From the IMG/VR virus record IMGVR_UViG_3300006065_000002: a DNA stretch of 64,000 nucleotides, one strand, 5' to 3'. Numbering within the stretch: the first letter of the stretch is position 1; each line of letters opens with the position of its first letter. Source of the stretch: a virus. Positions 45,661 to 56,285 of this stretch are shown here, piece after piece. The translations under genes and the position numbers were made by a program. Under the pieces are notes generated by a model. The model was not told where the DNA came from, made no database searches, and saw only the letters and a program-made list of their open reading frames with translations.

Positions 45661-45815
45661 TATGTTAGATAATGATGTTCTAATTACAGCCTTTTTATCC
45701 ATATCATTTATATTTAATATAGAATATTTACCAATCTTAATAAGTTTTATCTGTTAAGTCAAGTTTAGTAGTTCTAATCTCACACTACATATACACCCAA
45801 CCGTTATAGGAAATT

Positions 45816-46031
45816 TTATTTTTTCCCACGCTCAATTACAACATCCAACTTATCAAGAAGCGACATTATACTATCTAATCTTTTACCATTTGAGTAAGTC
45901 AACAATTCGGGGTCAATCTTATCTAATTCTTCTTTTGATAAGTTTTTAGATAGTTGTATCAATTCTTCTTCCTCAAATACATTTGCTTCAAGGGTTCTTC
46001 TTTTTTCAAGTAATTCAGCAAATCTGCTCAT
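45816..46031 (-). CDS. Cassette hypothetical protein
   Basis: 71 aa, between the 45803 and 46081 termini. Confidence 0.7.
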   Translation of the reverse strand: MSRFAELLEKRRTLEANVFEEEELIQLSKNLSKEELDKIDPELLTYSNGKRLDSIMSLLDKLDVVIERGKK

Positions 46032-46074
46032 AATTAAATTTGTTTAAGCCAACCCACAAAAAAATAAAACTATC

Positions 46075-46169
46075 CTATAACAAGCGGTTGGCAATATGCC
46101 ACAGGATAGTGCGTGTATTGAAATTAAATCCGTTGAAGTGGCACATCGCCAACCGCTCCAACGTTATGA
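46075..46169 (-). repeat. attC-like site
   Basis: ATAAC-AGCGGTTGGC...GCCAACCGCT-CCAAC-GTTAT. Confidence 0.8.
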
Positions 46170-46313
46170 ACAATAAACCCAACACACAATCCCAACAAAT
46201 ACAATTATACCAAACGATATTAACATCCAATTTGGTATTTTATGATAACCACATTCAAAACTAACTCGTTCCTCTTTAGGAACATTTGGTATAATTCTTT
46301 TTTTACTGTTCAT
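46164..46313 (-). CDS. 49 aa single-TM cassette peptide (not in ORF track)
   Basis: MNSKKRIIP...FGIIVFVGIVCWVYCS*; ATG directly after GTT, TAA inside the TAAC box. Confidence 0.6.
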   Translation of the reverse strand: MNSKKRIIPNVPKEERVSFECGYHKIPNWMLISFGIIVFVGIVCWVYCS

Positions 46314-46406
46314 AACAAAGTGTATAAGTAATGTGGCTAAATAAGTTTATCTGTAAAGTTGAAAGTATGTGCAAAGCCACACTACACATACACTCAACCG
46401 TTATGC
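46310..46406 (-). repeat. attC-like site
   Basis: AGTGTAT..TGTGGCT / AGCCACA..ATACACT. Confidence 0.8.
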
Positions 46407-46557
46407 ACAATTGCTTTTTAAGTTATACGTATAATTTGAAATTTTGTTACAAGCAACTGTGCATAACAGCAAATATAACCAATGCTATCAGTGCTTCGTA
46501 GTAAAGTTTGTGTAAGTTTAACCATAATTTTTATTTTTTTCTCCCAATCGCACAAAT

Positions 46558-47106
46558 TTAAGAATAAATATTGTTTGAATCACTAAATTTAGTATTTTTA
46601 ATTGATTTAATTTGGTTTGGTTTTGTTGCAATTATCACATTTTCCTTTTCCCCAAATCTATCATGTTTTAATATTGCACCATCATTTGATGTGTTTATAT
46701 ATTCACCACCAACATTTACTTTATAAGTTGGGTTTCTTAAATTTATAAAAACTGCTAATTCTTTATCACCATAATTTGAATAACCGTACCTATCATCAGA
46801 AAAGTAGAATAAATTACCTCCAATAAATCCTTTCTTATAACTACCCTTCGTATTATCAAATTCTTCAAAATCAGCAAAAGTTCTGTGATAAACAACTAAA
46901 GGTTCGCCATTTTCATCAACTACTTTACTTGAACTATTTGGATTTTTCTCCCAATCACCAAACCAATCTTTAAACTCAGGAGTTCTAACCAATTTATACA
47001 ATTCTGATGTTAAATTGCTTTTATTACCATTTGGTGCTAATAGCGTTTCATTCTGTTCATTCAAATATTTACGTATAGTAGTTTTTATAAATTTTTTCAA
47101 TTCCAT
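46558..47106 (-). CDS. Leader-tagged ADP-ribosyltransferase-like (ART-PolyVal-type) protein
   Basis: MELKKFIKTTIRKYLNE; FKDWFGDW, VVDENGEPLVVYHRT, FYFS, VFINLRNP. Confidence 0.7.
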   Translation of the reverse strand: MELKKFIKTTIRKYLNEQNETLLAPNGNKSNLTSELYKLVRTPEFKDWFGDWEKNPNSSSKVVDENGEPLVVYHRTFADFEEFDNTKGSYKKGFIGGNLFYFSDDRYGYSNYGDKELAVFINLRNPTYKVNVGGEYINTSNDGAILKHDRFGEKENVIIATKPNQIKSIKNTKFSDSNNIYS

Positions 47107-47222
47107 ATTATTAAATAGTTTTATTATATATAAATATTCAAATTTTAAATTTCCTTCCCACAAAAATAAAACAAAAAGGTTTCGTTCTTCGTAGGTAGTT
47201 TTTTAGTAGATTTCTGCACAGC

Positions 47223-47316
47223 ATATAACAAGGTGTATAAGAAAGTTTGCTATCAGCAGTTGTGGTAATCTGAAAGTTCATCTAAGCAAACCTTCTCATA
47301 CACCCAACCGTTGGCA
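47223..47316 (-). repeat. attC-like site (major family)
   Basis: GGTGTATAAGAAAGTTTGCT / AGCAAACCTTCTCATACACC. Confidence 0.85.
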
Positions 47317-47322
47317 GCAATG

Positions 47323-47589
47323 TTAAAGACGCTCAATCTCATCTTTGACAAGTTGCCAATAATCAGACGTGTAATTTTCAGTTACAAAACCGAACTTAGT
47401 TAGAACATTGTATTCTGACTTTTCAGCTTCTTCAACGGCTATCTTAGCACATTGCTTTGCGATAAATACATTCATATCTTCTAAATTGTAATTGTATCTA
47501 TCAGCGCCTCTTACTTCTGGGAGATACTTTTGTACTAACTCGTTTGCTTTTTCTTGTGGTGACATATATTTAATTTTAAAGTTTGACAA
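47323..47589 (-). CDS. Cassette hypothetical phage protein
   Basis: MSPQEKANELV...AKQCAKIAVEE...YWQLVKDEIERL. Confidence 0.75.
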   Translation of the reverse strand: MSNFKIKYMSPQEKANELVQKYLPEVRGADRYNYNLEDMNVFIAKQCAKIAVEEAEKSEYNVLTKFGFVTENYTSDYWQLVKDEIERL

Positions 47590-47604
47590 TCAAAAAAACA
47601 CTGC

Positions 47605-47736
47605 TGCCAACACACGTTTGGCAAAAGTGGCGGTGCAGTTCTCCGATCGACATTTACTGCTATATTCAACATTGGTTCTCCGCGTCAATATTTGTGGTCA
47701 AAATCGCCACCTTCGCCAAGCGTGGGGACGTTATGC
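47605..47736 (-). repeat. attC-like site
   Basis: CACGTTTGGC..GTGGCG / CGCCAC..GCCAAGCGTG. Confidence 0.8.
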
Positions 47737-47865
47737 TATCTCTCGAATATTCAATTGACTTATCAACTTCTTCAAGTTTTATTCTTAGTTGGTCTTTTTC
47801 TGTTAAAATTTTCATTTTAAATATGTTTTAAATTAATAATAAACAAAACGTTATAAGTAATATTT

Positions 47866-54309: not shown

Positions 54310-54428
54310 TTATTGACTTATAAAATTTTTTATATATAAATATTCAAATTTTAATTTCCTTCTCACAAAAAATAAAACAAAAAGGTTTCGTTCTTCGTAT
54401 CAAAGTTTGTATGTTAAATCCGCACAGC

Positions 54429-54521
54429 ATATAACAAGGTGTATAAGAAAGTTTGCTATAAAGGTTAGTAGTAATTTTAAAGTTTATCTAAGCAAACCTT
54501 CTCATACACCAACCGTTATAG
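54429..54521 (-). repeat. attC-like site (major family)
   Basis: Same arms as the site at 47223. Confidence 0.85.
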
Positions 54522-54528
54522 CCAATAG

Positions 54529-54891
54529 CTACCATTCACGGTCAACACCGACTTGTATAAAGTCAACACTTTCCGAATAATAACCATTACTTTCACCATA
54601 CCAACGAATATCCACATAACCTTTTATAGTTGCTAATTTGTAAAATGTCCACGTACATGAACCCCAATCATTTGTTGGTTCGTAGTTTGAAACTTCTTCG
54701 GCTTTCAATATTGGTGTTCCAATCAAGTCGTTTAAATCTCCGTTAATGTCTTCAATTGAAACACTTTCACAGCATTCTTGTCTGTGATACATTTTAAATT
54801 GAGTTCCATCATCAACGATAAAAATTAATTCATCGCCATTGTTTTTGATTTCGGTAAGTGTTTTACCTACTAAGTCTTTAAATTCTGCCAT
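54529..54891 (-). CDS. Cassette conserved phage protein
   Basis: [12 protein letters not shown]...HRQECCESV...TWTFYKL...GESNGYYSE. Confidence 0.75.
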
Positions 54892-54934
54892 TTTATATAT
54901 TTTAAAGTTTAATTTTTTAACGTTTTTTACATAC

Positions 54935-55028
54935 ACATAACAAGGTGTATAAGAAAGTTTTTTACAAAGGTAAGTATAAATTTCGAGATTTCCAAATAAA
55001 AAACTACATATACACCCAACCGTTAGCA
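54935..55028 (-). repeat. attC-like site
   Basis: GGTGTATA..AGTTTTT / AAAAACT..TATACACC. Confidence 0.75.
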
Positions 55029-55250
55029 GCAAGTTTCAACCTTGCAATTACTTAACCATATCGCACGTATTTTAGCAATTAACCAGCATCTGTATTTAGT
55101 TGCATATCCAGTTGAACTTGAAAAGTTTGGATATTTATGACCTTTATACGTGCGAGTATACCATTGTTCCTCGTTCAAATCTTTGACAACAAACCTGCTG
55201 CTAACAAAGTATAAGCGTAATGCTTTCAGTTTTTCAATTAAAGTTTTCAT
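55023..55250 (-). CDS. Cassette protein starting inside the upstream attC-like loop
   Basis: [19 protein letters not shown] crosses the GTT at 55203-55205; TAA lies in the TAAC box. Confidence 0.6.
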
Positions 55251-55319
55251 ATATTTTTAAATTTTAGTGTTTCAAATTAATTTAAGTGTAAACACTACAC
55301 TTATACTTAACCGTTATGT
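55199..55319 (-). repeat. attC-like site
   Basis: AGTATAAGCGTAATG / CACTACACTTATACT. Confidence 0.75.
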
Positions 55320-55399
55320 GTAAGTGTTCCGTTCATCCTTCTAATCAACATTTCAGTTGAAAATTTTAAAAGAAAAATCCTACGCACAAATATAGTAAA

Positions 55400-55813
55400 T
55401 TAATTTGAATAATCAAAATCATATTTTACTATAATATTTTTTGGTATTGTATCTAAATACGCAACAGAACCCCATATATCTAAACTTTCAATCACCTTTT
55501 CTTTATCGGTAGTCGCTTTATTCCAACCATACTTATTTAAAATATAATCATCATCCCAAGTTAATTTATTCAAATCTAATTTTGTAACATCAATCCACAA
55601 TCTAACCAAAGGTTTATATCCATAACTTTCTTCATCTTCATAGTATTCATCCATAATATCCATTAAAGATTGTGGTAAATTCGCTTTGTAAAGTGATTGT
55701 GATGTTGTTGATTCAAAAACATCCATTGACCAATGTTTTTTTCCCTTTTCAATAAATAATTTTTCTTCATCAGATAAAGTATTTAAAATTTCATTTATAT
55801 CAAAAGTTTTCAT
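55400..55813 (-). CDS. Cassette hypothetical protein
   Basis: 137 aa; shares its trailer with the cassettes at 51621 and 53288. Confidence 0.7.
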   Translation of the reverse strand: MKTFDINEILNTLSDEEKLFIEKGKKHWSMDVFESTTSQSLYKANLPQSLMDIMDEYYEDEESYGYKPLVRLWIDVTKLDLNKLTWDDDYILNKYGWNKATTDKEKVIESLDIWGSVAYLDTIPKNIIVKYDFDYSN

Positions 55814-55912
55814 AAATAAAATATATATTAATATTAAATATTTTATAGTATAACTTACTGTTTTCCTTTTTATTAATCTTTAGTTAATATTATAACGTGT
55901 TGTGTGTAATAG

Positions 55913-56128
55913 CTACGCCTTTGCTATTTTGCAACTCCACCGCCAAAATTTTTGAAGGTTATCAAACCAAATGTCAATTTCATCAGCTATCCATCCTTCG
56001 CCACTTAATAGTTTCTGTATATCAGCTTCTTTAGGTTCTAATCCTTCGCCACTTCCAATACTTGTACCTTCTGCCCACATTTGGTGTGCTTGGTCAAAAA
56101 TTTCTGTATGTTCTCTATCTACTGTCAT
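55913..56128 (-). CDS. Cassette hypothetical protein
   Basis: Matched termini at 55899 and 56161. Confidence 0.6.
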   Translation of the reverse strand: MTVDREHTEIFDQAHQMWAEGTSIGSGEGLEPKEADIQKLLSGEGWIADEIDIWFDNLQKFWRWSCKIAKA

Positions 56129-56154
56129 TTTTCTTCTATTTAAACCGCTACTAC

Positions 56155-56285
56155 ACACAACAATGCGTATAAGTAATAGCGGGGTTTGTGTTAATATTTA
56201 AGTTCATTTCTTTTTTTTAATCTTTGTGGTTAAACGAAAAGTAGTCGCTTTTTATCTGCTACTACTCATACGCTCAACGTTAGAA
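56155..56285 (-). repeat. attC-like site
   Basis: GCGTATAAGTAATAGC / GCTACTACTCATACGC. Confidence 0.8.

Follow-up and report, generated by a model that had tools for sequence, protein, structure and literature searches.

How do the small genes that lie between the imperfect hairpins of a viral DNA move, and what tells the two strands of their recombination sites apart? We investigated these questions in a 64,000-nt stretch (hereafter the window, position 1 being its first letter) of IMG/VR virus record IMGVR_UViG_3300006065_000002. From ~45.7 to 56.7 kb every gene of the window is on the − strand, with imperfect hairpins in between; read on the + strand, each array hairpin starts with AAC and ends with GTT, and each cassette body runs from the GTT of one hairpin to the AAC of the next. 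We counted positions inward from each end of the body. Our overall reading, which we hold to be probable, is that of an integron-like cassette array in a large phage, with mismatches that may mark the strand to be recombined.

Cassette ends in the window and in related loci

We tabulated 17 GTT-side and 17 AAC-side ends (45803-56684), and took a GTT end to match the next AAC end if at least seven of the 10 variable positions (5-10 and 12-15) agreed. Eleven of the 17 GTT ends (beginning at 45803, 46163, 46400, 47310, 47850, 48179, 49148, 50156, 51621, 55022, and 55899) matched the next AAC end at 7-10 of these positions, and for 10 of the 11 that AAC end was also the best match array-wide; the exception, 50156, was best matched by the AAC end of an earlier cassette with an identical start sequence. 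Position 11 in these 11 cassettes read A/G in nine, A/A in one (45803), and A/T in one (47850). The original prediction had claimed that 11 cassettes match by their own two ends and that position 11 sets A against G in nine of the 11 pairs; re-tabulation returned both counts and every example string, although some of its coordinates were off by 1-10 bases. The six units with unmatched ends (47730, 53119, 53288, 54515, 55313, and 56279) all lie beside truncated or missing hairpins.

Relatives were collected with an exact 19-mer of the commonest hairpin, which retrieved 112 viral contig stretches, most of them holding rows of the same hairpin kind (up to 12 per stretch); the window's own contig is not among them. 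Orienting the loci like the window gave 396 hairpins and 266 cassettes between hairpins, with 243 non-redundant cassettes from 70 loci. In these 243 cassettes, the two ends of a cassette had 7.05 of the 10 variable positions in common; with shuffled partners the figure was 3.79 (maximum of 2000 shuffles: 4.17). Positions 5-9 agreed in 74-86% within a cassette, but in 25-57% across a hairpin, i.e., between neighboring cassettes.

Position 11 departs from this agreement: the two ends were identical there in 2-4% of cassettes, compared with 74-98% at positions 4-10 and 12-14. Among the 152 matched cassettes, 129 (85%) read A/G, 12 A/T, eight A/C, and three A/A (identical: 2%). The GTT side carries A at position 11 in 95-97% of cassettes (logo for positions 10-12: A.71, A.95, T.79), and the AAC side, on the + strand, has C at.74 and the pairing base T at.04; C (G in the notation of the original prediction) stands opposite the invariant A in 71-85%. 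The conserved feature is an invariant GTT-side A that opposes anything except T, so that the pair is never Watson-Crick and not strictly a wobble. Tabulated across homologous arrays, then, the position-11 bias persists in 243 cassettes from 70 loci. Of the conserved A/G mismatch that had been proposed, the A/G pair holds in 85% of matched cassettes, but the trait that is conserved is A facing non-T.

Long flanking stretches are common to several window cassettes (families D1, D5, D9, and D12), as would be expected if the position-11 pattern simply reflected descent from one ancestral cassette backbone, with no selection involved. However, positions 5-9 and 12-15 are widely diverged and covarying, while position 11 stays A versus non-A throughout the 243 cassettes and 70 loci, and the pattern is also found in bacterial arrays whose recombinases are just 37-44% identical to the phage enzyme. 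We give descent as the sole explanation almost no credence.

The commonest hairpin had no match in isolated phage records (sensitive blastn), and Rfam held no family matching the hairpin either at the curated threshold or with E relaxed to 1, its three matches being weak and due to chance. A scan of bacterial and archaeal genomes with the 19-mer gave 23 matches, with real bacterial arrays confined to low-GC contigs of metagenome-assembled genomes that have inconsistent taxon labels. The matches in isolate genomes were rejected as chance matches, there being no hairpins at those places.

Four fixed mismatches and the folding of the two strands

The main site class (172 non-redundant sites) has a 21-position stem. 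Outside the fixed mismatches, Watson-Crick pairing is 95-100% at every stem position through 19, falls to 85% at position 20 and 69% at position 21, and is maintained by many compensating changes. High Watson-Crick pairing together with so many compensating changes indicates that the hairpin fold is real. Three fixed mismatches are set into this stem: at stem positions 1, 9, and 14, the + strand has A in the 5′ arm opposite C in the 3′ arm in 95%, 69%, and 99% of sites, respectively. All site classes keep the innermost fixed A.C at one and the same spacing from AAC (86-100%). Counted over all stems, the mismatches are strongly one-sided (A.C 860, C.A 60, G.T 53, and T.G 52). Together with position 11 this makes four fixed mismatches, all of them transitions, and none of the three in the stem is less well conserved than position 11. 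The stem arms are equal in length and differ by transitions only. An unpaired central spacer is present but unequal, AA versus CAACC on the top strand being commonest (200 of 396 sites).

A fixed A.C on the + (top) strand is a G.T wobble on the − (bottom) strand. With DNA energy parameters, 310 of 338 sites folded more stably on the − strand, which had a mean advantage of 2.24 kcal/mol; its fold is an unbroken stem with no bulged base, and the + strand fold contains 1x1 loops. We circularized the cassettes in silico, rebuilding each site with the cassette's own two ends as in an excised circle (circle site), and folded both strands. The − strand of the circle site was the most stable form, with a mean folding energy of -21.7 kcal/mol, followed by the + strand of the circle site (-17.3), the − strand of the array site (-16.7), and the + strand of the array site (-13.4).

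The cassette as a mobile unit

The mobile unit on the + strand is TTA-body-TAAC-hairpin-G, an integron-type cassette, because the far-side hairpin travels with the body, homology is limited by CGTTA, and contig pieces start at GTT. Where the right end of a cassette was conserved and the next cassette differed, the far-side hairpin had a median identity of 0.86 (n = 81); where instead the left end was conserved, the near-side hairpin had 0.57, equal to background (0.56). One cassette together with its hairpin is 100% identical in two contigs, the homology beginning and ending at CGTTA, and the resolution of the crossover is limited to this invariant CGTTA. When all cassettes were compared strictly with one another, only three informative pairs of identical units in different contexts emerged, and a looser end-based comparison was used for the statistics.

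In lake and freshwater metagenomes, the contig pieces with a match to single cassettes of the window begin at the GTT boundaries 46162, 54515, and 55018; those beginning at 46162 come from two other metagenomes, and one other-metagenome piece spans 55018-55224. CGTTA-bounded homology, GTT-starting contig pieces, and the attI-like site and recombinase of relatives (see below) together bear out the earlier claim that the units moved as cassettes. That the two ends of a cassette fit each other is what a circle needs to rebuild its own recombination site, which is established integron knowledge and not new. Joints in metagenome contigs from other runs (most short sides ~21-36 letters, one of 59) were judged to be cross-matches between repeats and were not used as evidence of excision.

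The ends of the units are 12-15-bp inverted repeats, and TnpB is represented nearby by a gene and a fragment, which would suit a view of each unit as a small transposon-like element with terminal inverted repeats, the hairpins being unrelated intergenic repeats. We consider this very improbable. Target-site duplications were not seen; homology between copies takes in the far-side hairpin and stops at CGTTA; the repeats vary by cassette, but the hairpins and AAC/GTT cores are common to all; and the enzyme encoded beside the arrays of relatives is a tyrosine recombinase.

Recombinase and attI-like site in relatives

A single tyrosine recombinase gene precedes the first hairpin by 180-900 bp at 22 loci, on a constant side and strand relative to the hairpins. 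At 17 of the 22, the first cassette has its best-matching start at a GTT that lies past the recombinase gene and short of the first hairpin; at 15 of those 17, an AT-rich attI-like stretch of the type ...ATATATAATA runs up to this GTT with no hairpin before it, and in L011 and L034 a GC-containing stretch, not of the AT-rich type, leads to the first GTT. The ends of the first cassette are already matched, with A/G at position 11 (A/T in L026). Five large array-bearing viral records have a match to the tyrosine recombinase family, four as a single complete gene and one as two fragments. The fragments, frames of 178 and 43 amino acids (aa), stand beside the array of a 465-kb viral record (L077; G002:C1:13645-14702), which suggests a broken gene next to a persisting array.

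The recombinases are 268-286 aa long. The best curated model, NF040815 (XerA / integron integrase), scores 177-197 bits, below its cut-off of 220, and the integron-integrase model TIGR02249 scores 152-158 bits against a cut-off of 265. The best solved relatives are archaeal XerA (4a8e, E = 3e-32) and then IntI4. The alignment with IntI4 (2a3v) splits, query residues 182-213 standing opposite chain residues 181-260 with ~48 residues missing; by this alignment, the IntI-specific insertion is absent. In a solved complex, the segment that marks integron integrases grips flipped-out bases (PMC11641012), and its absence here fits sites without bulged bases.

Strand polarity in phages and bacteria

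Genes of the phage arrays are on the wobble (bottom) strand in 202 of 202 clear cases, i.e., they point toward the recombinase. The bacterial relatives examined were three loci of a Crocinitomicaceae assembled genome (L150, L151, and L152) and one Saprospiraceae locus (L137). Recombinase homologues number several per bacterial genome, with the 37-44% identity to the phage enzyme given above, and each one examined precedes one to three hairpins. The cassette genes and the recombinase gene are here on the other strand, in the classical orientation, and the A.C side is still the strand leading away from the recombinase; between phage arrays and bacterial relatives, genes and recombinase gene are thus both flipped relative to the sites. 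Because the bacterial genes flip while the A.C side does not, the sense of the mismatches follows the recombination geometry and not the coding strand.

The cut made by a tyrosine recombinase falls at the 3′ end of the arm that it binds. The place cut by integron integrases is 5′-AA↓C in the bottom-strand R box (PMC5027507); if cassettes are bounded at G↓TT on the + strand, cutting would be on the − strand, which carries the wobbles.

This polarity bears on the view that the hairpins are mainly RNA elements (terminators, or elements of processing or stability) between phage transcription units, with G.T read as G.U in mRNA and with mobility as a secondary matter. Since the phage genes are on the wobble strand in all 202 cases, their transcripts would bear the well-paired form, and conserved upstream blocks in cassettes (families D7, D13, and D14) may be promoters of their own. 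In bacteria, however, the genes are on the opposite strand with the wobble sense unchanged. Moreover, the position-11 pair is impossible in a linear transcript, its halves being a whole cassette apart; the hairpin has no T-run after it and no matching family in Rfam; and the arrays start at an attI-like site adjoining the recombinase. A primary role in RNA is unlikely.

The same results speak to a second view, in which position 11 is not a selected mismatch but each end has its own base requirement, e.g., different recombinase subunits or a host factor reading the duplex, the lack of pairing being a by-product. Both bases are conserved individually (A.95 and C.74), the 2-4% identity equals the expectation from independent base frequencies, and the A-versus-C contrast is also present across the hairpin, between neighboring cassettes. 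Yet the AAC side has T, which alone could pair, less often than any other base (.04), and surrounding positions pair in 74-98%; three more fixed positions show the same A.C sense inside a clearly covarying stem; and the sense of the mismatch tracks the recombination geometry in both phages and bacteria. We regard separate requirements as a possible but doubtful explanation.

The array and cargo of the window

The window has a GC content of ~25% and encodes a long tRNA array, tmRNA, and GOLLD RNA, together with Ro60-type, TnpB, sugar-modifying enzyme, and Dda-like helicase genes; a very large phage is a source that fits this content. Among public sequencing runs, the one with the best coverage of the window is a hot-spring metagenome sample, possibly its origin, and the runs listed include none of RNA; an exact 31-mer of the window had no match in the metagenome collection. 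A simple stem search found 12 complete sites (and one extra chance match inside a gene), and reading of the sequence added five partial sites, all within 45.7-56.7 kb and on the + strand. Sites 2, 4, 5, 7, 8, 9, 11, and 12 below were obtained by stem search and folding, and site 10 by stem search.

The first hairpin remnant, and the sole one before cassette 1, is a right half at ~45738-45805 (family D17). Cassette 1 (body from GTT to AAC, 45803..46081; ends GTTATAGGAAAT / GTTATAGGATAG) has A/A at position 11 and an own-end match of 8/10; hairpin site 1 after it (AAC...GTT, 46079..46165) folds at -19.5 kcal/mol on the − strand versus -16.3 on the + strand, with two A.C mismatches on the latter. 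The ends of cassette 2 (46163..46316; GTTATGAACAAT / GTTATGAACAGT) match at 10/10 with A/G at position 11 (46173 and 46306), and hairpin site 2 (46314..46402) leads to cassette 3 (46400..46467), a gene-free unit of 68 bp with A/G and 10/10 that has no intact hairpin after it. Hairpin site 3 (47227..47312) is of the most frequent sequence type; its − strand folds into a continuous 20-bp stem, and its + strand has two 1x1 loops. Cassette 4 (47310..47611; ends GTTGGCAGCAATG / GTTGGCAGCAGTG; A/G, 10/10) follows; on the − strand its rebuilt circle site folds at -35.5 kcal/mol, compared with -21.1 in the array. Hairpin site 4 (47609..47732) belongs to a 124-nt class.

The next matched body, 47850..48121 (A/T, 7/10), is followed by a short partial site (48119-48181), and the body 48179..49031 (ends GTTATATGCAATGC / GTTATATGCAGTGC; A/G, 9/10) by hairpin site 5 (49029..49150). 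The DNA methylase cassette (49148..50075; gene 49161-50144 on the − strand, PF01555) has A/G at position 11 and 9/10, and the folding energies of its circle site are -20.3 kcal/mol for the − strand and -11.7 kcal/mol for the + strand; for hairpin site 6 (50073..50158) the values are -9.9 and -6.0 kcal/mol, respectively. A cassette with a 408-aa gene (50156..51539) has A/G at position 11, A/T at position 10, and 7/10, and is followed by hairpin site 7 (51537..51623). The cassette with a TPR-like gene (51621..52300; ends GTTATGTGTAAGTG / GTTATGTGTAGGTG; A/G, 10/10) runs into the left half of a partial hairpin (52298 to ~52360; families D3 and D6).

Further to the right lie hairpin site 8 (53036..53121), the right half of a partial hairpin that ends at 53290 and was found by reading the sequence, and hairpin sites 9 (54433..54517) and 10 (54939..55024). 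The body 55022..55205 (ends GTTAGCAGCAAG / GTTAGCAGCAGG; A/G, 10/10) precedes hairpin site 11 (55203..55315). The body 55899..56161 (ends GTTGTGTGTAATAGC / GTTGTGTGTAGTAGC; A/G, 10/10) precedes hairpin site 12 (56159..56281) and is itself preceded by the hairpin-less junction ATAACGTGTT (55892-55901), in which only two bases separate an AAC box from a GTT box, an arrangement that deletion of an entire hairpin between its two cores would leave. At the right edge of the array, the left half of a hairpin (56682..56705; ATAACAAGGTATATGTAAAATACC) stands without its right arm.

We found no tyrosine recombinase gene within the window (tblastn). With at least two attC-type sites in a row and integrase-free surroundings, the array qualifies as a cluster of attC sites lacking an integron integrase (CALIN). 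At its left edge, a 105-aa open frame (45309-45626, − strand) matches the C-terminal zinc-finger part of the window TnpB (E = 0.005), whose intact gene is at 34726-35952; the frame partly overlaps the GOLLD RNA match (from 45045) and abuts the truncated first hairpin. Since a frame of this kind adjoins that hairpin, an IS605-type event may have removed the recombinase end of the array. The window copy has probably lost its platform, or else relies on an enzyme encoded elsewhere.

Several of the genes carried by the array share a feature of their products. A common leader, MELRKFIATTIREYLNEQ and close variants, opens the unrelated proteins encoded at 50242-51468, 51698-52180, and 52386-52922 on the − strand, and probably also the product of 46558-47163, which has an ADP-ribosyltransferase domain of polyvalent proteins. 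The leader ends in L-x-E and recalls the capsid-targeting peptides of T4 internal proteins. A weak PARP-like match was seen at 53602-54309. Stretches of the methylase cassette (49148-50075) share 92% nucleotide identity with a methyltransferase gene of Flavobacterium phages vB_FspS_mymlan6-1 and 6-2, and this cassette is the only part of the window with a match to Flavobacterium phages among isolated phage records; the match hints at a Bacteroidota host and at cargo common to small phages.

The hairpin-site family is abundant well beyond the phage of the window and the hot-spring sample. In lake-water, sediment, and freshwater metagenomes, summed contig depths over the bins with hairpins and shared flanks range from tens to thousands. 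Depths in the thousands occur only in the lake-water run, and cargo genes are much rarer than hairpins and flanks.

Discussion

Cassette-end positions 2-12 read TTAKnnryAAT in the logo, an 11-bp arm. The XerD arms of three dif sites are TTATGTTAAAT, TTATGTAAACT, and TTATGTCAAGT (PMC3025954), and the cassette arm fits the XerD-arm pattern TTATGTnAAnT, in which position 11 is the variable, penultimate base. Comparison by eye for a second dif-type arm in the hairpin stem, and for a dif-like reading of the attI-like region, gave nothing convincing.

From these elements a mechanism can be proposed. A cassette would be excised as a circle in which its own ends flank its own hairpin and pair over ~15 bases. 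The arm at positions 2-12 would serve as the R box, where the Xer-like tyrosine recombinase would bind and cut 5′-TAA↓C on the − (bottom) strand. In the folded bottom strand, position 11 would mostly be a T.G wobble, with T.T or T.C in some cassettes, and in the top strand it would be A.C; the cut strand would accordingly carry 5′-ATT...TAA↓C in the folded bottom strand and 5′-ACT...TAA↓C in the folded top strand. The site being otherwise palindromic, the two folded strands would differ at the four mismatches, in the unequal spacer (5 nt and 2 nt), and in the terminal loop, and the bottom strand is predicted to fold as an unbroken helix where the top strand does not. The fixed mismatches would then do the job of the flipped-out bases of classical sites, marking the strand for recombination. 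A perfect palindrome would give identical arms, and mismatches, spacer, and loop are the differences, which makes a role in strand choice a reasonable reading.

A stronger form of this mechanism we put forward tentatively, as somewhat less than an even chance: an insertion-free Xer-type recombinase would act on folded single strands told apart by four G.T wobbles, with position 11 in the dif-like arm that the circle completes. The original prediction had singled out position 11 as a possible determinant of strand selectivity. Its bias persists and places G.T on the strand that we infer to recombine, but position 11 is not unique in this respect; a role for it and the other mismatches in strand choice is plausible on the sequence evidence.

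A number of observations weigh against the reading as a whole. Single-strand recombination and the position of the cut within CGTTA are inferred from geometry and folding energies, and the likeness to a dif arm rests on a short degenerate pattern. Across array hairpins, positions 5-9 match in just 25-57%, and a full arm exists only in the hypothetical circle. The base opposite the invariant A is not its wobble partner in 15% of matched cassettes, and position 11 could represent two separate sequence needs at the two ends rather than a selected mismatch. The bacterial sample is small (six cassettes). One 278-bp body occurs with different hairpins (L016:1667-1950 versus L043:3552-3835), the homology ending exactly at TAAC, so that exchange at the other box takes place too, and body and hairpin have perhaps been separated by rare recombination of the other strand. 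Finally, the 64-kb window holds no recombinase, and with truncated sites and six units with unmatched ends its array may be decaying.

We compared the system with classical integrons on the basis of published descriptions (PMC5027507, PMC8946536, PMC11641012). Both have imperfect hairpins with AAC...GTT cores (R and L boxes), a cassette made of a body and the site distal to the integrase, an attI-like site beside a tyrosine recombinase (here in relatives), circles that rebuild their own R box, and palindrome imperfections that make the strands unequal. The classical model already has the cassette start fitting the inverse core of its own attC, with imperfections of the palindrome deciding the strand; the strand determinants that it names are extrahelical bases, the unpaired spacer, and the terminal loop, and mismatches are not named (PMC5027507, PMC8946536). 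The words "wobble" and "mismatch" are absent from the main study of attC strand selectivity. The differences are that the recombinase of the phage system lacks the IntI insertion; that the sites have four fixed transition mismatches and no bulge, whereas the classical bottom strand has two or three extrahelical bases; that the spacer is 5 nt versus 2 nt, against 5-6 on each arm in classical sites; that cassette ends pair over ~15 bases instead of seven; and that genes of the phage arrays point to the recombinase, whereas classical promoterless genes are read away from attI on the top strand.

Phage genomes are already known to harbor CALINs, found with tools trained on classical attC sites and tested with IntI1 (Qi et al. 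2023, PMC9892861). Like the window array, these are integrase-free rows of attC-type sites in phages with DNA methylase cargo; in the accessible portion of that report, however, no Xer-like partner, site family of the present kind, or fixed mismatches are described (PMC9892861).

The likeness to Xer/dif lies in XerA, a single-recombinase system, as the best solved relative of the recombinase, and in a cassette arm that follows the XerD-arm pattern (PMC3025954); the difference is a folded hairpin of 85-125 nt that bounds mobile genes in arrays, where dif is a 28-bp duplex with two 11-bp arms and a 6-8-bp center.

In the integration of phage CTX, XerCD acts on a hairpin formed from a single strand, with the imperfections in its pairing determining the strand and the arm that are used; that system integrates a whole phage genome at a host dif site and does not shuffle cassettes within an array. 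T4-type phages reportedly contain promoter-plus-stem-loop (PeSL) cassettes, in which, according to Arbiol and colleagues in 2010, repeated stem-loops flank small variable-region genes and mediate their shuffling; PeSLs are said to act through homologous recombination and transcription signals. To our knowledge, no dedicated recombinase, AAC/GTT core, or matched cassette ends have been described for them. In the literature searched we found no description of a wobble code or of an Xer-type integron-like system of this kind, and a four-position wobble code in such a system looks like an undescribed variant.

The choice of strand by integron integrases, and the way in which they came to act on folded single strands, are explained today by flipped-out bases held in a domain that only they possess. 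The same cassette logic with an enzyme free of this domain, on sites that have no flipped-out bases but four mismatches of one sense, offers a readily mutated candidate for an alternative mechanism of strand choice. It also bears on the trade of large phages in small accessory genes, here methylases and ADP-ribosyltransferase-like proteins, with a hairpin family present in >100 viral contigs. The system also links integron sites to the dif sites of Xer recombinases; if the stronger form of the mechanism is true, these elements would be a working intermediate between Xer/dif and integrons, and phages would own a gene-capture device of their own.

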